The notes: a model not told the origin generated them from the letters alone. Shown: positions 6,266 to 41,597, counted from the first letter of the stretch. The stretch: DNA of 41,597 bases from a virus (IMGVR_UViG_2537561603_000003:1-41597); one strand, 5' to 3'. Numbers and translations are program-made.

Positions 6266-6634
6266 TCAGGCGGCTTTGATAGTCATATCATCTGAATCAA
6301 ATATTCCTGATGTATCGATATCGGTAATTCTTATTCCTTCGCTACCATCCATTGGAGGCCATCCTTCCTGACCATTTCCATCATTCCAGTCGAACTCACA
6401 CACAACACCATATGCATTTAAGTCGCTTGAAATTGCTATAAGCAGAGCATGTTGCGCCAGCATGATTAATACAGCATTTAATAAAGAGCCGTGTTTATTT
6501 AGTCGGTATTCAGAGTCTGACCAGAAATTATTAATCTGGTGAAGTTTTTCCTCTGTCATTACGTCATGGTCGATTTCAATTTCTATTGATGCTTTCCAGT
6601 CGTAATCAATGATGTATTTTTTGATGTTTGACAT
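6266..6634 (-). CDS. ea10: Lambda Ea10 protein
   Basis: 122-aa product MSNIKKYIIDYDWKASIEIEIDHDVMTEEKLHQINNFWSDSEYRLNKHGS... matches lambda Ea10. Confidence 0.85.
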   Translation of the reverse strand: MSNIKKYIIDYDWKASIEIEIDHDVMTEEKLHQINNFWSDSEYRLNKHGSLLNAVLIMLAQHALLIAISSDLNAYGVVCEFDWNDGNGQEGWPPMDGSEGIRITDIDTSGIFDSDDMTIKAA

Positions 6635-6652
6635 CTGTTCATATCCTCACAG

Positions 6653-6680
6653 ATAAAAAATCGCCCTCACATTGGAGGGC
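6653..6680 (-). terminator. Intrinsic terminator between the 293-aa gene and ea10 (tL-like)
   Basis: 6-bp GC stem gccctc (6663-6668) / gagggc (6675-6680) with loop acattg; the minus-strand transcript then has a 6-U run (plus-strand A run 6655-6660). Confidence 0.6.
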
Positions 6681-6822
6681 AAAGAAGATTTCCAATAATC
6701 AGAACAAGTCGGCTCCTGTTTAGTTACGAGCGACATTGCTCCGTGTATTCACTCGTTGGAATGAATACACAGTGCAGTGTTTATTCTGTTGTTTGCGTGA
6801 AAATGAAATCCGCCTAAGCGGG

Positions 6823-7704
6823 TTATGACCACTTTTTGTTTGGGTTTCGTTGGTGAGCGTGGTTTACAGGATTATTTGATATACCCCATAACTCTGACTC
6901 GCTTATCTCTACACGAGAGAAAGACCTGCTTTCTTTCAGTTCTTTTATAAACCTAGAACCTAAGATGACATCTATTGTACCAGAAAGTTCTTGTAAAAGA
7001 TCTTTGTTTTTTCTGAGGAAGAAAATATCTTCTTTATATTTAATTTTTACATAGAATTTATTCTGTATTTTTAATATATCAAAGCATGGCAGATATCTAT
7101 ATCCCTCATATTTTCGCCACTGCTTAACAATTATAACATCTCTTTCATTTACTGCATTAATCAGCCCAAGACCAAGTACAGGTATGAATATTCTATTGTC
7201 TGCCGAAAGCGTACAATTATCACCACCAGGCAAATATGTATAAATCATGTCGGAATTTTTATACGCATCAACGAATGCACGTAAGAAGCGTACATATTTT
7301 TGCCATCCGTTTATACCGAATTTACCATATAAGTATTCTTTATTTGTTAGAAGAAAACTATTTGTATCAGGATCCTTATCTACAGATCTGTCGATAAGAT
7401 CTCCAACTACGTTTACAAAGTCAAAGACAGAGTTTAATAAGAACAATTGTCTTTCAGTAGGGCGAATTTCAATTATGTAGCCTGGATGAAGACGATATTG
7501 CATCTGCTTACGAAGTATACCGAACGCTTGGGTCCGAGCATCTGAAAGCAACTTCTTGTCGCCATCGCCGTGAGCATTGTTTCTAATAAAACTGATATAA
7601 TTTACTAATTTTTCAGCCTCTTTTTTGTGTTTTTTTCGCTCTGATGCTGAGTCTATTGGTTTTGGTATGGACTTGTAATCAATCTTCTTCATTACGTACC
7701 TCAT
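6823..7704 (-). CDS. Hypothetical 293-aa protein in the pL operon, at the sieB/ral position
   Basis: ATG at 7702-7704 overlaps the N stop codon (ATGA); no TM segment and no motif recognised; AT-rich by eye. Confidence 0.6.
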   Translation of the reverse strand: MRYVMKKIDYKSIPKPIDSASERKKHKKEAEKLVNYISFIRNNAHGDGDKKLLSDARTQAFGILRKQMQYRLHPGYIIEIRPTERQLFLLNSVFDFVNVVGDLIDRSVDKDPDTNSFLLTNKEYLYGKFGINGWQKYVRFLRAFVDAYKNSDMIYTYLPGGDNCTLSADNRIFIPVLGLGLINAVNERDVIIVKQWRKYEGYRYLPCFDILKIQNKFYVKIKYKEDIFFLRKNKDLLQELSGTIDVILGSRFIKELKESRSFSRVEISESELWGISNNPVNHAHQRNPNKKWS

Positions 7705-14046: not shown

Positions 14047-14708
14047 ATATCTACGAAAGAATTGATGGCAGCAAATACCGAAATATTTGGGTAGCTGGCG
14101 ACCTGCACGGATGCTACACGAACCTGATGAACAAACTGGATACGATTGGATTCGACAACAAAAAAGACCTGCTCATCTCGGTTGGCGATTTGGTTGATCG
14201 CGGTACAGAGAACGTCGAATGTCTGGAATTAATCACATTCCCCTGGTTCAGAGCTGTACGTGGAAACCATGAGCAAATGATGATTGATGGCTTATCAGAG
14301 CGTGGAAACGTTAATCACTGGCTGCTTAATGGCGGTGGCTGGTTCTTCAATCTCGATTACGACAAAGAGATTCTGGCTAAAGCTCTTGCCCATAAAGCAG
14401 AAGAACTTCCGTTAATCATCGAACTGGTGAGCAAAGATAAAAAATATGTCATTTGCCACGCCGATTATCCTTGTAACGAATACGAATTTGGAAAGCCAGT
14501 TGATCCTCAGCAGGTAATCTGGAACCGCGAACGAATCGGCAACTCACAAGACGGGATCGTGAAAGAAATTAAAGGCGCGGACACGTTCATCTTTGGTCAT
14601 ACGCCAGCAGTGAAACCACTCAAATTTGCCAACCAGATGTATATCGATACCGGCGCAGTGTTCTGCGGAAACCTCACATTGATTCAGGTACAGGGAGAAG
14701 TCGCATGA
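14043..14708 (+). CDS. ninI: Ser/Thr protein phosphatase (lambda NinI type)
   Basis: 221-aa product with calcineurin-like phosphoesterase motifs (GDLHG, GDLVDRG, GNHE), matching lambda NinI; it directly follows ninG, so no ninH is present. Confidence 0.9.
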
Positions 14709-15328
14709 GACTCGAAAGCGTAGCTAAATTTCATTCGCCAAAAAGCCCGATGATGAGTGACTCACCACGGGCCACGGCTTCTGACTCTCTTTCCGGTACT
14801 GATGTGATGGCTGCTATGGGGATGGCTCAATCACAAGCAGGATTCGGAATGGCTGCATTCTGCGGTAAGCATGAACTCGGCCAGAACGACAAACAAAAGG
14901 CTATCAACTATCTGATGCAATTTGCACACAAGGTATCGGGGAAATACCGTTGCGTTGCAAAGCTTGAAGGAAATACTAAGGCAAAGGTACTGCAAGTGCT
15001 CGCAACATTCGCTTATGCGGATTATTGCCGTAGTGCTGCGACGCCGGGAGCAAGATGCAGAGATTGCCACGGTACAGGCCGTGCGGTTGATATAGCAAAA
15101 ACAGAGCAGTGGGGGAGAGTTGTTGAGAAAGAGTGCGGAAGATGTAAAGGCGTCGGTTATTCAAGGATGCCTGCAAGCGCCGCATATCGCGCTGTAACGA
15201 TGCTAATGCCAAACCTCACCCAACCCACCTGGTCACGCACTGTTAAGCCGCTGTATGACGCTCTGGTGGTGCAATGCCACAAAGAAGAGTCAATCGCAGA
15301 CAACATTTTGAATGCGGTCACACGTTAG
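14705..15328 (+). CDS. Q: Late antiterminator Q
   Basis: 207-aa product [69 protein letters not shown] matches lambda Q. Confidence 0.9.
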
Positions 15329-15996: not shown

Positions 15997-16320
15997 ATGA
16001 AGATGCCAGAAAAACATGACCTGTTAGCCACCATTCTCGCGGCAAAGGAACAAGGCATCGGGGCAATCCTTGCGTTTGCAATGGCGTACCTTCGCGGCAG
16101 ATATAATGGCGGTGCGTTTACAAAAACAGTAATCGACGCAACGATGTGCGCCATTATCGCCTGGTTCATTCGTGACCTTCTCGACTTCGCCGGACTAAGT
16201 AGCAATCTCGCTTATATAACGAGCGTGTTCATCGGCTACATCGGTACTGACTCGATAGGTTCGCTTATCAAACGCTTCGCTGCTAAAAAAGCCGGAGTAG
16301 AAGATGGTGGAAATCAATAA
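15997..16320 (+). CDS. S: Holin S (S107 with S105 dual start)
   Basis: Product [67 protein letters not shown] matches lambda S; Met1-Lys2-Met3 dual-start motif. Confidence 0.9.
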
Positions 16321-16780
16321 TCAACGTAAGGCGTTCCTCGATATGCTGGCGTGGTCAGAGGGAACTGATAATGGACGACAGAAAACCAGAAATCATGGTT
16401 ATGACGTCATTGTTGGCGGAGAGCTATTCACTGATTACTCCGATCACCCTCGCAAACTTGTCACGCTAAACCCAAAACTCAAATCAACAGCCGCCGGACG
16501 TTACCAACTTCTTTCCCGTTGGTGGGATGCCTATCGCAAGCAGCTTGGCCTGAAAGACTTCTCTCCGAAAAGCCAGGACGCTGTTGCACTGCAGCAGATT
16601 AAGGAGCGTGGCGCTTTACCTATGATTGATCGCGGTGATATCCGTCAGGCAATCGACCGTTGCAGTAATATCTGGGCTTCACTTCCGGGGGCTGGTTATG
16701 GTCAGTTCGAGCATAAGGCTGACAGCCTGATTGCAAAATTCAAAGAAGCAGGCGGAACGGTCAGAGAGATTGAGGTATGA
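16304..16780 (+). CDS. R: Endolysin R (lytic transglycosylase)
   Basis: 158-aa product [58 protein letters not shown] matches lambda R. Confidence 0.9.
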
Positions 16781-17244
16781 GCAGAGTAACCGCGATTATC
16801 TCCGCTCTGGTTATCTGCATCATCGTCTGCCTGTCATGGGCTGTTAATCATTACCGTGATAACGCCATGACCTACAAAGAGCAGCGCGATAAAAAAGTCA
16901 GTGAGCTGAAGCAGGCGACTGCCACCATTACTGACATGCAGCAGCGCCAGCGTACTGCTGATGCACTCGATGCTAAATACACGAAGGAGTTAGCTGATGC
17001 GAAAGCTGAAAATGATGCTCTTCGGCGCAAGCTTGATAATGGTGGTAGGGTGCTCGTCAAAGGAAAATGCCCTGTGCCATCCTCAGCCGAAACCTCCAGC
17101 GCCTCCGGCATGGGCAATGATGCCTCCGTCGAACTCTCTCCAGTTGCTGGACGAAACGTTCTCGGTATCCGGGACGGAATCATCAGCGACCAAACAGCAC
17201 TGAGAACGCTTCAGGAATATATCAGGACACAATGCCTTCGATGA
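16777..17244 (+). CDS. Rz: i-spanin Rz
   Basis: 155-aa product [30 protein letters not shown]... with an N-terminal TM segment and a coiled-coil body; lambda Rz-like. Confidence 0.85.
16997..17203 (+). CDS. Rz1: o-spanin Rz1 (lipoprotein), embedded in Rz in the +1 frame
   Basis: Product [21 protein letters not shown]... has a lipobox (VVGC) and a Pro-rich segment ([11 protein letters not shown]), like lambda Rz1. Confidence 0.7.
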
Positions 17245-31087: not shown

Positions 31088-31264
31088 CGTTTAACAGCCT
31101 GCCGGACGGGCTGTCCTACCTTCTCAATCCGGTTGACGCCGGGTTAATTCCTTATACAGCACTTAAAGATGGCTCTGTCGATTTGTACGATATTGCTCTT
31201 TTGAATGACCATCTGGCGGTAAAAGCGGATAACCAGCGGCGCATTGAGAAATGGAGAGAGGATA

Positions 31265-33253
31265 ATGATCGCTGAAACTATTAAAGATTTCCTCGTCTCG
31301 CTTGGCTTCAGTGTGGATGATGCAGGAGCGAAAAAGTTCGGTTCTGTCCTCGCCGGTACAACTGCAAATGTCATCAAAATGGGACTGGCCGTTGAAGGAG
31401 CTGCGCTGTCCGTGGTGGCCTTCACGGCTAAGATCGCCTCCGGCCTGGATAATCTTTACTGGGCGTCACAGCGCACCGGCGCGACAGTCCAGGGAATTCA
31501 GTCTATTGGCTATGCGGTTTCGCAGGTTGGCGGCAGCGTGGACGCTGCGCGATCTTCTCTGGAAAGCCTCTCCCGGTTTATTCGTAACAATCCCGGTGCA
31601 GAAGGCTTTCTGAATCGCCTGGGCGTACAGACCCGTGATGCCAGCGGTAACATGCGTGACATGGCCGCTATCTTTACGGGCGTTGGACAGAAACTCAGCA
31701 GCATGCCGTATTACCGGGCTAACCAGTATGCGCAGATGCTGGGCATTGACGAAAATACCCTTATGGCGATGCGTCGGGGTGTGGGTGGCTTCTCCGGGCA
31801 GTACAGCGCAATGGCGAAAGCTATCGGCTTCAATGCTGACGAGGCGGCCAGAAGCTCCAACAAATTTATGACCTCCCTGCGTGAGTTTGGCGCGATGGCA
31901 GGCATGGCCCGTGACAAAATCGGCTCTAATCTTGCGGGTGGGCTTGCGGGTTCGCTGGACACCCTGCGCCGCCATATCCTGGACAACTTCCCTCGTATCG
32001 AGCAGACCCTGACGAAAGCCATAAAAGGCATTCTGGCGCTCGGGGATATTATCGGGCGGCTGTTCTTCAGACTGATTGAAGGAACATCAAGCCTCATCAC
32101 CTGGTGGCAATCGCTGGATAAGCAAACGCGGGAGTTGATCTCGCTGTTTGGCGCACTGACGATTGCGCTGCGCATTCTGAACAGTACGTTCTGGATGTCG
32201 CCGATTGGCCTCATTACCGCGCTGGCGGCGGGTATTGCCCTCCTGTGGGAGGACTATCAGATCTGGAAGGAAGGCGGCGACAGCCTGATTGACTGGGGCA
32301 AGTGGAAACCGGAGGTCGATGCCGCGCTGAAGATGGTTCGTGACCTTAAAACGACCGTTAACGACCTGGCGAAAGCGCTGGCGAAACTACTCAATATTGA
32401 CCCCAAATCATGGTCCCTGAAGTGGGATTTCAGCAACTTCATCGACCAGATGGGCGAATTCAGCAAAATGCTGAACATGATCGCCGACCTGCTCAACGCT
32501 ATCAAAGATGGCCGCTGGGCTGATGCCGTCAGCATCGGCAAACAGATACTTAATCAGGGCAGCGAAAATCCGTCAGCGATGCCGATGGTTACAGACAGCG
32601 CTAACAGTACTGCCGACTGGATTAAAGAGCACTGGGGATTCGATCCCCGCAGTGTGGGCCGGACGGTACGCGGCTGGTTTGGTGATGATGAGCCGGAACA
32701 ACATGCACAGGCTACGAAACGAGGAGAACGGAATAACAATCCGGGAAACCTTAATTTTGCTGGTCAGGCGGGGGCTTCTCTTGAACGCCCGGGCGGGCGA
32801 TTTGCCAGATTCGAAACTGCCTTTGATGGATTACGGGCTCTTGCTCGTCAGTTAATGTTGTATGCCGGACGTGGAATAAACAGCGTGGAGAAAATTATCT
32901 CTACCTGGGCGCCTGCGTCTGATAATAACAACACAACTGCGTATATCAGGGCTGTATCGCAACGACTGGGAGTGGATCCCCGGGCTGCCCTGAATATGAG
33001 CGATCCGCAAACCATGTCAGCATTGATGAGCAGCATTATCCAGCATGAAAATGGAAGAAATATCTATTCTCAAGAGCTGATTAATAAGGCTGCCGTGGCG
33101 GGAATTAGTGGCAAAGTGACAGAGGTTAACCAGCAAAATACCTACCACATTTACGGTGGCGGAGATCCGCACGCTGTCGGTAATGAGGTTGCACGTCGGC
33201 AACAGTCTGCAAATGCTCAGGTCATGCGAAGTAATCAGGTGAGGGTGAGTTAG
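31265..33253 (+). CDS. Tail tape measure protein with C-terminal lysozyme-like region
   Basis: About 662 aa from the ATG at 31265 (RBS GAGAGAGGA); helical and Ala/Gly-rich with hydrophobic segments; the C-terminal part (…SDPQTMSALMSSIIQHENG…) looks like a peptidoglycan-hydrolase-type domain. Confidence 0.65.
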   Translation: MIAETIKDFLVSLGFSVDDAGAKKFGSVLAGTTANVIKMGLAVEGAALSVVAFTAKIASGLDNLYWASQRTGATVQGIQSIGYAVSQVGGSVDAARSSLESLSRFIRNNPGAEGFLNRLGVQTRDASGNMRDMAAIFTGVGQKLSSMPYYRANQYAQMLGIDENTLMAMRRGVGGFSGQYSAMAKAIGFNADEAARSSNKFMTSLREFGAMAGMARDKIGSNLAGGLAGSLDTLRRHILDNFPRIEQTLTKAIKGILALGDIIGRLFFRLIEGTSSLITWWQSLDKQTRELISLFGALTIALRILNSTFWMSPIGLITALAAGIALLWEDYQIWKEGGDSLIDWGKWKPEVDAALKMVRDLKTTVNDLAKALAKLLNIDPKSWSLKWDFSNFIDQMGEFSKMLNMIADLLNAIKDGRWADAVSIGKQILNQGSENPSAMPMVTDSANSTADWIKEHWGFDPRSVGRTVRGWFGDDEPEQHAQATKRGERNNNPGNLNFAGQAGASLERPGGRFARFETAFDGLRALARQLMLYAGRGINSVEKIISTWAPASDNNNTTAYIRAVSQRLGVDPRAALNMSDPQTMSALMSSIIQHENGRNIYSQELINKAAVAGISGKVTEVNQQNTYHIYGGGDPHAVGNEVARRQQSANAQVMRSNQVRVS

Positions 33254-34144: not shown

Positions 34145-35206
34145 ATGTCACAGAACTGGATGAGACATTTCGAGCTGCAGCTTGTGGACGGGAACGGTCA
34201 GGGAATTGAGCTAAGTGATTTTAAAGTCACCTTTACGATCGACTGGTTCAACATCAGCAGTGCGTCCCGGGTAGGGACTATCAAAATTTATAACCTCTCG
34301 GCAGATACTGTGAACCGAATCACCGGGCAGGAGTTTTCGAAAGTGCGTCTGATTGCGGGTTACGACGGTATCGCGCCGGAGGTATCGGCCAGCGACGTCG
34401 GGACCGTGCGGGAAGTCGACGCGGCGGATGTGGGCCAGAGTGATGGCCGCAACTATGGGATGATTTTCAGCGGCGAAATTCGTTACTCGGTAACAGGAAA
34501 AGACAGCCCCATTGATTCTTACGTTCTGATTCAGGCTGCCGATACGGATCTGGCTTTTGCCACCAGCATAACTTCGCAGACGCTGGCGGCCGGTTATACG
34601 GTCGCAGACGTGAATCGCGCGCTGATGAAAGACTTCGAGGCCAAAGGCGCGACTGAAGGTCTGACGCCTGAAATGCCTGCTACCGTTTTCCCCCGGGGCC
34701 GGGTGCTATTCGGCATGACACGTCATCTTATGGATAACGTGGCCGGACAATGTGGCGCAACATGGCAGTTCGTGGATGGTCAGCGCCAGATGGTGGCGAA
34801 TAACGAATATGTTCACGACGCGATTGTGCTCAACAGTGCCACGGGGCTTATCGGTATGCCACAGAAGACTATCGGCAACGGCGTAAACGTCCGCGCGCTG
34901 ATTAACCCGAACATCCGGGTTAACGGGCTCATTAAGCTGGATCAGGCTTCAGTATTCCGCACCGCGCTGTCGAACAACCATATCGCGATGGCCGGCGGGC
35001 AGATCACCGACCAGAACACGGACGGAAATATCACGCTCAGCGGCACCACATCGCAGCCTGCCAGCATCGCAACGGATGGCGTTTATATTGTGCGCGGGAT
35101 TATGTACACTGGCGATACAAGGGGCCAGGCGTGGTACATGGATATGATGTGCGAAGCGCGTGGCGCGGCGGATCTGTATACGCAATCGGCTTTGCAAAGG
35201 GGATGA
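34145..35206 (+). CDS. Baseplate hub-like protein (putative)
   Basis: 353-aa ORF located between the tape measure and spike genes. Confidence 0.45.
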   Translation: MSQNWMRHFELQLVDGNGQGIELSDFKVTFTIDWFNISSASRVGTIKIYNLSADTVNRITGQEFSKVRLIAGYDGIAPEVSASDVGTVREVDAADVGQSDGRNYGMIFSGEIRYSVTGKDSPIDSYVLIQAADTDLAFATSITSQTLAAGYTVADVNRALMKDFEAKGATEGLTPEMPATVFPRGRVLFGMTRHLMDNVAGQCGATWQFVDGQRQMVANNEYVHDAIVLNSATGLIGMPQKTIGNGVNVRALINPNIRVNGLIKLDQASVFRTALSNNHIAMAGGQITDQNTDGNITLSGTTSQPASIATDGVYIVRGIMYTGDTRGQAWYMDMMCEARGAADLYTQSALQRG

Positions 35207-35209
35207 GCA

Positions 35210-35551
35210 ATGAGGGGTATTATTTTTCTGTTAGCTGTCTTTTCTGCGTGCAGCGCGTGGGCGGATGGCTTCACGGTTAAATGCGGTGGCTACACTATGG
35301 TTGCAAACCAGGGCGAGTTATCGACAATCAACGGTGAAAGAGTTACCTCTCAAAAAATCACCGAACTGGGTACCAATGGTTTGAAAGTAGACATGGGGCT
35401 TATGCCTGCCAAAGACGGTAACAACTACGGCTTTGAATACATTCGTCGCCCTGGTACCGAAACGCGATTCCTTAATGTCCAACTGCTGCAGAACAGCATG
35501 GATGCGCCGAAAATCATCGGTTCCTTTCCATGCAAAAAGATTGTTGATTAA
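35210..35551 (+). CDS. Secreted 113-aa protein (moron in the baseplate cluster)
   Basis: N-terminus MRGIIFLLAVFSACSAWADGF is a signal peptide (possible lipobox FSAC or AWA-D cleavage); starts 4 nt after the previous stop. Confidence 0.55.
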   Translation: MRGIIFLLAVFSACSAWADGFTVKCGGYTMVANQGELSTINGERVTSQKITELGTNGLKVDMGLMPAKDGNNYGFEYIRRPGTETRFLNVQLLQNSMDAPKIIGSFPCKKIVD

Positions 35552-35604
35552 TCACTCGTAATTATAATGTGATACTTCTACTTTCACGATAAGGAATTTG
35601 TCGC

Positions 35605-35844
35605 ATGTTCGGATTTGATAAATTAATAACTCCAAAAATCATCAACGTTCTGTATGGCATCACAATGTTACTTCTGGTTGTTGCCGCCATTATAACGTTT
35701 GTTAATGGGAAGGCTGCTGGCGCTTTAGTGCTTTTGTTATGTGCTGTATTTTGCCGAATATTCTTTGAGTGCATCATGGTTTCATTTAAAAACAATGAGT
35801 ATCTTCGCCGAATAGCTGAAGCGTTAGAAGCAAACAAGCAGTAA
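35605..35844 (+). CDS. Small membrane protein, 79 aa, two predicted TM helices
   Basis: ATG at 35605 with an AAGGAA RBS (35591-35596); hydrophobic stretches VLYGITMLLLVVAAIITFV and ALVLLLCAVFCRIFF. Confidence 0.5.
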   Translation: MFGFDKLITPKIINVLYGITMLLLVVAAIITFVNGKAAGALVLLLCAVFCRIFFECIMVSFKNNEYLRRIAEALEANKQ

Positions 35845-35862
35845 TGAAACTTCAATAATGAA

Positions 35863-35884
35863 CCCGCCACCCGGCGGGTTTTTT
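35863..35884 (+). terminator. Intrinsic terminator after the moron pair
   Basis: cccgcc (35863-35868) / ggcggg (35873-35878) stem with loop accc, followed by tttttt (35879-35884). Confidence 0.7.
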
Positions 35885-35903
35885 GCTTTCTGGAGCCTAC
35901 TAA

Positions 35904-36656
35904 ATGGCAGTATCTGACCAGACCCGCAGCGGCGACCTTGCCGAAACATTCAAATCTGAACGGGAAACAACAAAGAACCAGATCCGTGTCGCCTTGCCTG
36001 GCATTGTTCAGTCATTCGATCCCGACGCGGTGACGGCGGTTGTGCAGCCAGCTATCCGTTCGGTTGAAAAGGATAACGACGGTAACCGCATTACCAAAAA
36101 TTACCCGTTGCTGGTGGATGTGCCAGTGGTATTTCCGCGCGGCGGAGGCTGTACGTTGACTTTTCCGGTTAAAGCCGGGGATGAGTGTCTTGTCGTTTTT
36201 GCCGATCGTTGTATTGATTTCTGGTGGCAGAGCGGTGGGATACAGGAGCCGGTCGATGACAGAATGCATGATTTATCGGATGCATTTTGTATTGTCGGTC
36301 CCCAGTCGCAGGCGAGGAAGATTAGCGGTATTAATACCAGTGTCACACAGTTGCGTAGTGACGACGGCAGCACCTATTTTGAGCTTAATCCTGATACCCG
36401 GAAAATTAAAATTGTCGCCCCGGGTGGTCTTGATGTGGTTGCCCCTCTGGCTGATTTTTCTGAGAAAGTAACCATTCATGGCCTGTTAACCTGGATGGGG
36501 GGCATGGTGGGGTCTGTTGTTTCTGGTGTGGCTTCAAAAATCACTGGTGCTGTTGAGTTCTTGGGGAGCGTTAAGGCTAACGGCAAGCCAATCGATGATA
36601 CGCACACTCATGGCGGTGTTCAGCGCGGTGGAAGCAATACCGATGGGGTAAACTGA
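35904..36656 (+). CDS. Baseplate spike protein (gpV-like)
   Basis: 250-aa protein with a C-terminal HTHGG...GG segment as in gpV-type spike tips; TGGAG RBS upstream. Confidence 0.55.
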   Translation: MAVSDQTRSGDLAETFKSERETTKNQIRVALPGIVQSFDPDAVTAVVQPAIRSVEKDNDGNRITKNYPLLVDVPVVFPRGGGCTLTFPVKAGDECLVVFADRCIDFWWQSGGIQEPVDDRMHDLSDAFCIVGPQSQARKISGINTSVTQLRSDDGSTYFELNPDTRKIKIVAPGGLDVVAPLADFSEKVTIHGLLTWMGGMVGSVVSGVASKITGAVEFLGSVKANGKPIDDTHTHGGVQRGGSNTDGVN

Positions 36657-40078: not shown

Positions 40079-41104
40079 TTAGGCTCGTGCTTCCTTTCTT
40101 AAAAATAAGGACCTCAATATCGAATTTTTCTCTATGAAATGCCAACACAACATAGCCATTGCAAGATTTAACAAAAAGACAAGTATCCAACTAGCAATAC
40201 CGTGAGTTCTTAAGAATGTATCTGGATTTCTGTCCAGATACATTAGCAATGGCAGCTGCATCAAATAAAATGAATAGCTGATGTCACCCAAATAAATAAG
40301 GCAAGATGTTAATATGTTTTTGGTTATTTCTAGGTTTCCCAAATAACATATAATTAATGCAAGTGTTGGTATTATTAAGTAGTTTGTATCCATGTTAACA
40401 TCGGATAGTGTGGTAGCATAAAAAAACATAGTCACAGAAATATAAAAAGTAATATTATTTATTCTTTTCCCATTTATGAAATACATGGCTGCACATATTC
40501 CGACAATAAATTCAGGAAGCCTAAAAATCGGAGTGGCGTAGTAAACGGAACCCACGGTTGGCCCACCAATAATCAGAGAAATTGGAACAAGCACAGCAGA
40601 AAAACCGTATGCAAAAAGTGTTATGAAAATCAAGTTGTCTTTATTTATTATCTTTAGTATATAAGGGAATAAAGAATAAAAAAACATCTCAACTGATACT
40701 GACCAGGTTCCACCAAAATTCCACAGGCTGAATGATTGGTATATCCATGCCTGCATACATACTAAATATAGGACTAAGCATGATATAATTTGCCCTGAGG
40801 TTAAATTGTCAGTAAAAAGAAATGGGAATGATATAATTCCGCAGCATAAATAAGCTGGGTAAATTCTTGCTATTCTTTTTTTAAAGTAATCAAGCAACTG
40901 AGAATCATAATAATTGTATGTAAGGACAAATCCAGAAAGCATAAAGAATATGCTCATTCCTATTGCCCCGTTTGAAATGGTTTTATTTAAATGAGAACCA
41001 AAGTCAACTGGGGCTCGCATATTGATATGAAAAATAAATACATAAAATGCAGCAAAGAACCGCAATATGGTGATGCCATCCATTTTGTTTTTTGATGAAT
41101 TCAT
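40079..41104 (-). CDS. Integral-membrane acyltransferase (acyltransferase-3 / O-antigen acetylase-like)
   Basis: 341-aa polytopic membrane protein; N-terminus ...GITILRFFAAFYVFIFHIN... is the signature start of acyltransferase-3 family enzymes (Oac/OafA type); very AT-rich; antisense to the tail genes. Confidence 0.75.
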   Translation of the reverse strand: MNSSKNKMDGITILRFFAAFYVFIFHINMRAPVDFGSHLNKTISNGAIGMSIFFMLSGFVLTYNYYDSQLLDYFKKRIARIYPAYLCCGIISFPFLFTDNLTSGQIISCLVLYLVCMQAWIYQSFSLWNFGGTWSVSVEMFFYSLFPYILKIINKDNLIFITLFAYGFSAVLVPISLIIGGPTVGSVYYATPIFRLPEFIVGICAAMYFINGKRINNITFYISVTMFFYATTLSDVNMDTNYLIIPTLALIICYLGNLEITKNILTSCLIYLGDISYSFYLMQLPLLMYLDRNPDTFLRTHGIASWILVFLLNLAMAMLCWHFIEKNSILRSLFLRKEARA

Positions 41105-41330: not shown

Positions 41331-41597
41331 TTACAGCCCAACTTGGCGAACTGTCGGGAACTCAGATACCAGCCACATATCGGCCTCTTCAAACATATCC
41401 TCCAGCATGCGGTTCAGCTTTTCCCGATCGCTTTTACTGGCATCGCTATTCAAGCCGTTCGCCTGCATCGGCTTCACCCTTACTTCGGCATCAGGGAAGA
41501 TCTGGTGCACTCGTTTCGTCAGCTCTGCCAGAATAATTTCTCTGGCCCCTTCGAGCCCCTCTACATTTCGCTTGTCATAAACCAGTTCAACGAACAT
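41331..41597 (-). CDS. DinI-like protein
   Basis: 88-aa product MFVELVYDKRNVEGLEGAREIILAELTKRVHQIFPDAEVRVKPMQANGLN...MWLVSE with the DinI-family pattern; ATG at 41595-41597 is the last codon of the window. Confidence 0.65.
   Translation of the reverse strand: MFVELVYDKRNVEGLEGAREIILAELTKRVHQIFPDAEVRVKPMQANGLNSDASKSDREKLNRMLEDMFEEADMWLVSEFPTVRQVGL

Follow-up and report, generated by a model that had tools for sequence, protein, structure and literature searches.

Phage T4 encodes two proteins that act against superinfecting phages, Imm in the inner membrane and Sp, an envelope protein that inhibits the gp5 tail lysozyme; they block the injection of superinfecting DNA and the muralytic activity at the tail tip. 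In HK97, the small inner-membrane protein gp15 is the product of a moron in the tail operon. It is expressed from the prophage and excludes DNA entry after adsorption, leaving the outer-membrane receptor untouched, and its inhibition depends on the tail region of the phage (PMC3594210). Hotspots of anti-phage systems have been described in P2 and P4 prophages (Rousset et al. 2022, PMC9122126).

The locus described here lies between the baseplate hub gene and the spike gene of an Escherichia coli prophage. It is of a known kind, a moron locus and prophage hotspot, and both of the gene families in it are uncharacterised. A literature search for prophage defence hotspots in baseplate or tail genes found no description of this locus or position in this phage group, and a search for DUF4282 (PF14110), the family of one of the two genes, found no paper.

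The window (the whole stretch of 41,597 nucleotides that was analysed) is a lambdoid, SEN34-like prophage of E. coli Rb-23 whose tail is contractile. It showed 100% identity to the chromosome of that strain over the region searched, and the prophage adjoins torT. The region was matched by 346 of 5426 complete E. coli genomes, and the locus belongs to a common group of enterobacterial prophages. The prophage carries lambda-type regulation genes for a CI-like repressor, NinG, the Q antiterminator, holin S and Rz. The Q gene is at 14705-15328 (+ strand; PF03589, E=3.7e-56), with NinG, holin S and Rz nearby, and the complete lysis cassette of S, endolysin and Rz is at 15997-17244. A moron for an O-antigen-type acyltransferase is found at 40079-41104 of the same prophage.

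The tail genes are of the SEN34/Brunovirus type, in the order sheath, tube, tape measure, Dit-like, Pam3-gp18-like plug, hub, spike, gp25-like, J, I, fibre, and fibre assembly protein. The hub gene (34145-35206, + strand; phrog_196 'baseplate hub', E=4.5e-88; Pfam E217_GP41, E=1.5e-5) bounds the accessory locus on the left. The anchor on the right is the spike gene (35904-36656, + strand), with the PF18352 N-terminal domain (E=1.7e-44), a GpV Apex motif, and the PGAP name 'membrane-puncturing spike protein'. The tape measure gene (31244-33253, + strand) is named 'lytic transglycosylase' by PGAP. In the Pfam scan, this protein matched PhageMin_Tail alone, at an E value of 2.5e-4 that is below the Pfam cut-off, while precomputed hits placed an SLT domain (PF01464) in the tape measures of two relatives (loci L191 and L275).

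The original prediction had placed a pair of small genes, unlike virion parts, between hub and spike. Both are present on the + strand, ORF113 at 35210-35551 and ORF79 at 35605-35844, and each has family support (phrog_3443 for the former, DUF4282 and phrog_12129 for the latter). We are highly confident in the architectural and evolutionary statements on the locus made below, which were read from sequence. As an overall explanation, we propose that the late tail operon of this SEN34-like prophage contains an accessory locus of two tiers with envelope exclusion roles, and we consider this proposal somewhat likelier to be right than wrong. The products of ORF113 and ORF79 probably alter the host cell envelope; that they do so for exclusion is a tentative reading, to which we give rather less than an even chance.

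ORF113, the gene at what we call position 1, starts with an ATG 4 nt past the hub stop codon and has the ribosome-binding site (RBS) AAGGGGA. It matched phrog_3443 with E=1.4e-47. Its homologues fell into 396 clusters, all called 'hypothetical' and, where the source was named, all from Enterobacterales. In a profile search of 1.8 billion representative proteins, 40 clusters were matched. Some giant proteins (P0211, P0235, P0246, and others) were matched in multiple repeats; these matches seem due to chance or driven by repeats of the fibre-like kind, and were not relied on. ORF113 had no match in Pfam (hmmscan at E≤1) or NCBIfam, PADLOC gave no match for ORF113 or ORF79, and sequence searches of the PDB with the ORF113 and DUF4282 families gave no match. 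Judged from these matches, ORF113 is a real gene of an orphan family.

The clear signal peptide predicted for the 113-aa protein corresponds to residues 1-18 (nt 35210-35263, + strand). Its sequence is MRGIIFLLAVFSACSAWA, followed by DG, with predicted cleavage between AWA and DG, and it has the basic n-region, the hydrophobic h-region and the small residues at -3 and -1 of a Sec/SPase I signal. The cleavage site is conserved among 44 family members: alanine is found at -1 in 44 of 44 and at -3 in 41, with valine in the other three. The signal region itself evolves faster, with 49% identity between members as compared to 80% in the mature part. Two cysteines, C25 and C108, are invariant in the family. 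The possible lipobox of the original prediction did not hold up: judged against the consensus [LVI][ASTVI][GAS]C, the window protein has phenylalanine at the -3 position of the lipobox, and the candidate cysteine, C14, is present in just 4 of the 44 members, so that this is not a lipoprotein family. ORF113 thus appears to be a Sec-exported, probably disulfide-bonded periplasmic protein.

A first AF2 model of ORF113, based on close homologues only, was unusable (pLDDT 54). When a divergent subfamily was added to the input, the pLDDT rose to 78.7, and ORF113 was predicted to be a small 8-stranded beta-barrel, soluble in the periplasm. Features of an outer-membrane barrel were absent. Among the structural matches of the barrel, avidins, Cap15 and haemoglobin-linker barrels scored above PliC/MliC, and the Foldseek result was not significant.

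A first survey of about 100 loci was biased because the loci were fetched via ORF113 itself, and a second survey of 78 loci was therefore ascertained through the hub (≥95% identical). In the first set, which includes many Enterobacterales genera, the order was plug, hub, ORF113-family gene, a variable slot of 1-1844 bp, terminator and spike. The ORF113 homologue was at most about 20 nt past the hub in all these loci, and the hub was always directly upstream. In the hub-ascertained set, position 1 held an ORF113-family gene in 70 of 78 loci. The remaining eight carried substitutes, namely an unrelated secreted protein of about 150 aa in four and an unrelated lipoprotein of 241 aa in the other four. 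In a Hafnia relative, position 1 was empty. The presence of unrelated exported proteins in 8 of 78 loci suggests that the tail does not need ORF113 and that the gene is accessory and does not encode a virion part. What persists at position 1 is an exported protein, not ORF113 itself.

The gene was not added recently; ORF113 is found with the hub across Enterobacterales, and a second subfamily, 27-43% identical, occupies the same position. The sequence of ORF113 turns over much faster than that of its neighbours: ORF113 proteins were only 54-55% identical where hub and spike were 95-98% identical. In Pseudescherichia vulneris, four tandem cassettes were found, each with a C-terminal (3′) fragment of the hub gene and an ORF113-family gene. 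The last 12 residues of the hub covaried with the ORF113 allele slightly more strongly (rho 0.77) than upstream hub segments did (0.65-0.69), a difference that linkage alone would suffice to explain.

The promoter scan listed no promoter for ORF113, and there is no room for one in the 4 nt after the hub stop. With such a start, ORF113 is probably made together with the hub. A moron would be expected to be absent from close relatives and to have its own promoter, and neither was found for ORF113, a family gene being present in 70 of the 78 loci.

This tight tie to the hub raises the alternative that ORF113 works with the hub, either in tail assembly or as a minor component of the virion, and that ORF79 is an unrelated passenger. 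The start so close to the hub stop, the lack of an own promoter, the persistence behind the hub in 70 of 78 loci and across genera, and the 80% conservation of the mature part would all suit it. Tails assemble in the cytoplasm, however, and ORF113 has a conserved cleavable Sec signal (AxA) and a pair of invariant cysteines, as is typical of proteins with a periplasmic disulfide. Near-identical hubs and spikes are also found with unrelated exported proteins or, in Hafnia, with nothing, and ORF113 diverges far faster than its neighbours. We regard this explanation as the least probable of those weighed here. As a possible analogue, we considered E217 gp42, the product of an open reading frame (ORF) that separates hub and spike in a relative with a solved structure; it was rejected, as it has no signal peptide.

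ORF79 (35605-35844, + strand) was confirmed as a 79-aa protein with two transmembrane (TM) segments and a good RBS, AAGGA at 35591-35595, 9 nt before the ATG. It matched Pfam DUF4282 (PF14110) over residues 2-71 with E=1.2e-10 and 42.2 bits against a cut-off of 27, in agreement with the PGAP name, and phrog_12129 with E=8e-48. Hydrophobic stretches correspond to TM1 at about residues 12-33 and TM2 at about 38-60. Two parts are conserved in the DUF4282 alignment, an N-terminal FxFDKLITPKI and, at and past the end of TM2, RIFFEC...FKNNEYLRRIAE, whereas the loop between the TM segments is variable. The conserved RIFFEC segment begins with two invariant charged residues in TM2, R51 and E55. By the positive-inside rule, ORF79 is predicted to have both termini inside, which would leave its conserved parts in the cytoplasm. 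An antisense ORF of 102 aa (35562-35870) was considered as a gene and rejected; it has no family support, whereas the sense ORF79 has Pfam and cross-genus support.

ORF79 is absent from most relatives; among the 346 complete E. coli genomes with a match to the region, the whole arrangement is present in just 57. The same slot between hub and spike holds DUF4282 genes in Pectobacterium and in Hafnia, in the latter without ORF113. Elsewhere, DUF4282 genes were found at no fewer than five other prophage positions, and most of these genes abut tape-measure genes. In two cases the gene is flanked by I-like and J-like genes, at the site of the HK97 morons gp22 and gp23, and in Pantoea the homologues come directly after a holin-lysozyme-Rz cassette. 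One chromosomal homologue had no prophage around it. Most DUF4282 genes elsewhere are preceded by a promoter-like element and followed by a hairpin terminator. Under the moron criteria of Juhala and Hendrix, ORF79 shows insertion between adjacent genes, deviant base composition (GC 0.36-0.42) and a downstream terminator, and on these sequence features it is the true moron of the locus. The predicted moron pair can thus be accepted for one gene: ORF79 (slot GC 0.38 against 0.56 in the hub; 57 of 346 genomes) is a moron, while ORF113, with its presence in 70 of 78 loci, is not a typical one. That the genes do not look like virion parts was borne out for both, ORF113 being exported and replaced in 8 of 78 loci and ORF79 having the sequence features of a moron, and neither should be annotated as a structural protein.

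Class II holins resemble ORF79 in its 79-aa size, two TM segments, predicted N-in/C-in topology and charged C-terminus. ORF79 might accordingly be a membrane-active effector (a holin, pinholin, antiholin-like protein or small abortive-infection toxin) that does not block DNA entry; the position of the Pantoea homologues next to a lysis cassette and the invariant charged R51 and E55 within TM2 point the same way. We think this very unlikely. No holin family was matched in Pfam at E≤1, the prophage already has its full cassette of S, endolysin and Rz, most homologues are in tail modules and not in lysis modules, and a toxin expressed constitutively from a prophage would be costly.

A sigma-70 promoter-like element for ORF79 was found at 35541-35568 (+ strand), with TTGTTG at 35541-35546 as the -35 element, a 16-nt spacer, and TATAAT at 35563-35568 as the -10 element. 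It has 9 of 12 matches; the -10 is perfect and the -35 is weak (3/6). The promoter scan, in the interval 35552-35604 that the original prediction had proposed for a promoter, listed no site, and this can be explained by the 3/6 matches of the -35, which are below the per-hexamer threshold. The proposed interval thus contains the perfect -10, and the weak -35 lies outside it.

The final codons of ORF113 (ATT GTT GAT TAA) coincide in part with the -35. The C-terminal 'IVD' that these codons specify was present in 17 of 17 loci with DUF4282 and in 0 of 86 without it. In the Hafnia locus (L275), which has no ORF113, the 9-mer ATTGTTGAT was also found, some 60-70 nt before the ATG of the DUF4282 gene. 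The distribution of 'IVD' and the shared 9-mer suggest that the left junction of the DUF4282 cassette, with the putative promoter, lies inside the 3′ end of ORF113. Judged from these junctions, the -35 region travels with the DUF4282 cassette.

The strong intrinsic terminator that had been predicted after the two genes was found at 35860-35889 (+ strand) including the T-run, with its hairpin at 35860-35881. It reads GAACCCGCC-ACCC-GGCGGGTTT followed by the T-run, forming a 9-bp stem with 6 G-C pairs and a 4-nt loop (folding energy -15.5 kcal/mol), and lies 16 nt past the ORF79 stop and directly upstream of the spike RBS. The motif was found once in the window and in none of 100 shuffles. It does not belong to the two genes, as had been supposed. 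A comparable hairpin and T-run were present in 93 of 100 related loci with any cargo, empty slots included; stems are conserved among them and loops differ. The comparison of loci marks the terminator as a conserved backbone element, not brought in by ORF79. Since the prophage encodes Q, late transcription should read through it. By analogy with lambda biology, transcripts begun inside the locus should stop there, and Q-modified late transcription would continue to the spike and wedge genes.

The slot between position 1 and the terminator has the features of a prophage variable hotspot: its flanks are conserved, its alternative cargoes are many, and they include a known defence gene. Its GC content was 0.36-0.47 across loci as compared to 0.52-0.58 in the hub gene. 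We counted at least 25 cargo architectures among relatives. One of the cargoes is the known defence gene PD-Lambda-1 (E=1.4e-82, PADLOC); others are frequent two-gene modules, one with a weakly HEPN-like second gene, a DUF2335 membrane protein, and secreted proteins. Some slots hold nothing, and in two of them (L163 and L172) the terminator stands alone in 61-63 bp.

The two genes had been predicted as a single unit. They could, then, form one two-component envelope system, on the model of T4 Sp with Imm or of an i-/o-spanin-like pair: they are adjacent on the same strand, one product would be periplasmic and the other in the inner membrane, and DUF4282 is combined again with an ORF113-family gene, there of the other subfamily, in a distant prophage of Pectobacterium. 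The composition of the slot speaks against such a unit. ORF113 alleles 97-100% identical to each other were found with many different cargoes, and the gene occurs with 25 or more other cargoes or with none; both genes together are in just 57 of 346 E. coli genomes. DUF4282 is alone in the Hafnia slot and is also found in unrelated tail modules and beside lysis cassettes. The junction of its cassette inside the ORF113 3′ end, moreover, implies a separate acquisition. A joint system is thus a quite remote prospect.

In the two-tier explanation that we prefer, ORF113, as the first tier, would be co-produced with the hub, exported by Sec, cleaved past AWA, and folded as a disulfide-bonded periplasmic barrel. 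It would have no part in tail assembly and would most likely act in the cell envelope, during infection or lysogeny, against related incoming phages. Its target might be the periplasm-exposed injection machinery, that is, the tape measure lytic transglycosylase, the hub or the spike, with the tape measure of the window as a candidate, or alternatively an envelope factor needed by incoming phages. The second tier, ORF79, would be a mobile cassette of promoter plus gene inserted between ORF113 and the conserved terminator. If expressed from the repressed prophage, as we infer it may be, ORF79 would block the entry of superinfecting DNA at the inner membrane, like HK97 gp15 or T4 Imm.

The rapid turnover of ORF113 alleles and their replacement by other exported proteins fit a role in an arms race. 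Several points weaken the exclusion reading. ORF113 has no promoter of its own and may therefore be made only late in infection, which fits poorly with protection of a lysogen. The putative promoter of ORF79 has 9 of 12 matches with a weak -35. By sequence comparison, neither protein has a homologue among the exclusion and defence proteins that have been characterised. In the predicted topology, DUF4282 has its conserved parts in the cytoplasm and a variable periplasmic loop, unlike what would be expected of a protein that meets a tail tip in the periplasm. The chromosomal homologue outside any prophage suggests that the family may have a housekeeping role.

That chromosomal homologue could equally point to a physiological role, and the two products might be lysogenic-conversion factors for the animal host or for stress (serum resistance, adhesion, envelope stress tolerance), on the model of Lom and Bor, and not anti-phage factors. 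Both products are envelope-bound, the position is typical of morons, and the same prophage has its O-antigen-type acyltransferase moron. The original prediction had named Cor and Lom as the kind of factor to expect, but neither protein showed homology to Lom/Ail, Bor or Cor (Pfam, E≤1). ORF113 would be soluble in the periplasm and not exposed on the surface; it lacks a conserved lipobox and outer-membrane barrel features. Moreover, the slot also carries a known anti-phage gene and the two-gene modules with a weakly HEPN second gene, and DUF4282 genes cluster beside genes of the injection apparatus. Conversion is, in our judgement, an improbable explanation, though a better one than a membrane effector.

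Two linked ideas extend the exclusion reading, and we offer them as unlikely: the ORF113 family would be a class, so far unrecognised, of hub-tied periplasmic barrels for 'tail-tip immunity', and DUF4282 would be a widespread inner-membrane block of channel formation by the tape measure. If so, each ORF113 allele would disarm the injection apparatus of one particular tail variant, exchange of alleles would proceed by cassettes that join a hub 3′ end to a barrel gene, and the four tandem cassettes of P. vulneris would be an analogue of the orphan toxin-immunity arrays known elsewhere. A block of channel formation by DUF4282 would explain its recurrence beside tape-measure, Dit, hub and J genes in five or more tail architectures.

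Apart from these ideas, the locus offers a new hotspot that can be mined for defence and exclusion genes, bounded by the hub 3′ end on one side and by the terminator and spike RBS on the other. The frequent uncharacterised two-gene modules in the slot, some with a weakly HEPN-matching second gene, are among its contents. The analysis also provides a concrete hypothesis for two orphan families, phrog_3443 and DUF4282.

Among the known systems, Cor, Llp, Lom and Bor are similar in being phage-encoded, exported, envelope-altering proteins from late or tail regions, Cor and Llp blocking the receptor FhuA. They differ in type, Lom being an outer-membrane barrel and the other three lipoproteins, whereas the ORF113 family has no conserved lipobox and is predicted to form a soluble periplasmic barrel. 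PliC/MliC proteins share with ORF113 a small size of about 100 aa, a periplasmic location and an 8-stranded beta-barrel, which in ORF113 is predicted. An inhibitor of a phage lytic transglycosylase would suit an exclusion factor; ORF113 had no MliC match in Pfam (E≤1).

The locus resembles T4 Imm and Sp in that an inner-membrane protein is combined with a periplasmic one, and the tape measure of this phage has the annotation 'lytic transglycosylase'. ORF113 and ORF79 are, in contrast, not inherited as a pair; T4 is virulent, and its imm and sp are not tail-cluster genes. Pfam scans found no Imm family for ORF79 and no family whatever for ORF113.

HK97 gp15 and ORF79 are both small inner-membrane proteins encoded in a lambdoid tail operon near tape-measure and tail-tip genes, and each gene has an intrinsic terminator at its 3′ side. 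Both also have chromosomal homologues, YebO for gp15 and the one homologue for DUF4282. They differ in size, gp15 having 62 aa and ORF79 having 79 aa with two TM segments, and an hhalign comparison of the DUF4282 family alignment with gp15 showed no sequence relationship (probability 0.2%, E=0.31).

As in the P2 and P4 hotspots, many low-GC cargoes alternate at one fixed site with conserved phage genes on either side, and one of them is a validated defence gene (PD-Lambda-1). Most of the cargoes here, DUF4282 included, are uncharacterised. The present hotspot is further distinguished by its host, a SEN34-like phage, by its position from hub to spike inside the baseplate genes, by the semi-fixed gene for an exported protein before the slot, and by the shared terminator that closes it.

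The slot between the hub and spike genes held alternative cargoes among the related loci (L plus a number; coordinates after a colon are those of the locus). In L012 and L184-L187 (e.g., L012:4434-5660), the cargo was a 408-aa protein with a T5orf172/MUG113 domain that matched PD-Lambda-1, a validated defence gene, at E=1.4e-82. Two-gene modules were frequent in this slot (31 loci: L017:4474-5633, L021, L124-L149 and others). Their first protein, with a length of either 243 or about 260 aa, was followed by a protein of 123-142 aa common to the modules; one member of this shared second family (L220, 131 aa) matched HEPN weakly (E=2e-3). The modules are candidates for uncharacterised defence or toxin-antitoxin pairs.

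In another relative (L166:3353-3718), the variable slot was occupied by a gene for a secreted two-cysteine protein of 121 aa, with FKCGD near the start of its mature part and a cysteine 4 residues from the C-terminus. Judged by eye, it resembles a distant paralogue of ORF113, the predicted two-cysteine beta-barrel protein encoded after the hub gene. If it is one, two consecutive barrel-type genes would be present at that locus. In the deposited annotation of Salmonella phage SEN34, the ORF113 homologue SEN34_20 (L001:3110-3451) has 77 aa and lacks a signal peptide. Its frame is open from a TTG start; translated from there, the precursor has the full 113 aa, including a signal peptide of typical form, and the annotation appears to be truncated.

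Four cassettes were found in tandem upstream of the spike gene in Pseudescherichia vulneris NBRC 102420 (L015:1-2900). Each unit consisted of a C-terminal fragment of the hub (~65-97 aa) followed by a gene of the ORF113 family, and these secreted-protein genes came from two divergent subfamilies. The array is similar to the orphan toxin/immunity arrays of other systems. Alternatively, it may represent recombination scars, with the conserved 3' end of the hub gene as the anchor.

In some relatives, the junction of the spike gene with the gp25-like gene was a second site of insertion. About 800 bp were present there in L012 (about 6373-7181), an ORF whose 45-aa product includes a hydrophobic stretch in SEN34 (L001:4774-4911), and an insertion at 5690-5919 in L189. 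The site was empty in the window, where the two genes abut at 36656.

A terminator-plus-RBS module, ACCCGCTCCGGCGGGTTTTTT(A)ATGCCCGGAG, was nearly the same in L004:6243-6290 and, upstream of the spike gene, in L018 and L180-L185. It lies 3' of the DUF4282 gene in Klebsiella siphophage-type prophages and 5' of the spike gene in SEN34-like prophages. The module may be a common boundary sequence used for cassette exchange.

Directly after the tail-fibre assembly gene, on the opposite strand, was an Acyl_transf_3 family acyltransferase gene (40079-41104, minus strand) of very low GC content (0.28-0.37), which looks like a serotype-converting moron. It was followed by a DinI-family gene (41331-41597, minus strand) at the prophage end, adjoining torT.

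The tape measure gene of the window (31244-33253) was named lytic transglycosylase by PGAP. PF01464 (SLT) was among the precomputed hits for the tape measures of two relatives (L191 and L275), and a domain scan of L100 identified it in an SLT-domain protein. Judging from these annotations, a lytic transglycosylase is linked to the tape measure of this SEN34-like tail type. DUF4282 genes directly adjoin an SLT-domain protein of this kind (gap of 0-1 nt) in three IMG/VR loci.

A DUF4282 homologue with 62% identity was also found in an ordinary chromosomal neighbourhood (L276:5001-5240, AP025685.1). It was flanked by a LysR regulator with a ring-hydroxylating dioxygenase operon on one side and an acetyltransferase gene on the other, with two methyltransferase genes farther out. 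This chromosomal homologue stands to the prophage DUF4282 gene as YebO does to the superinfection-exclusion protein gp15 of HK97.
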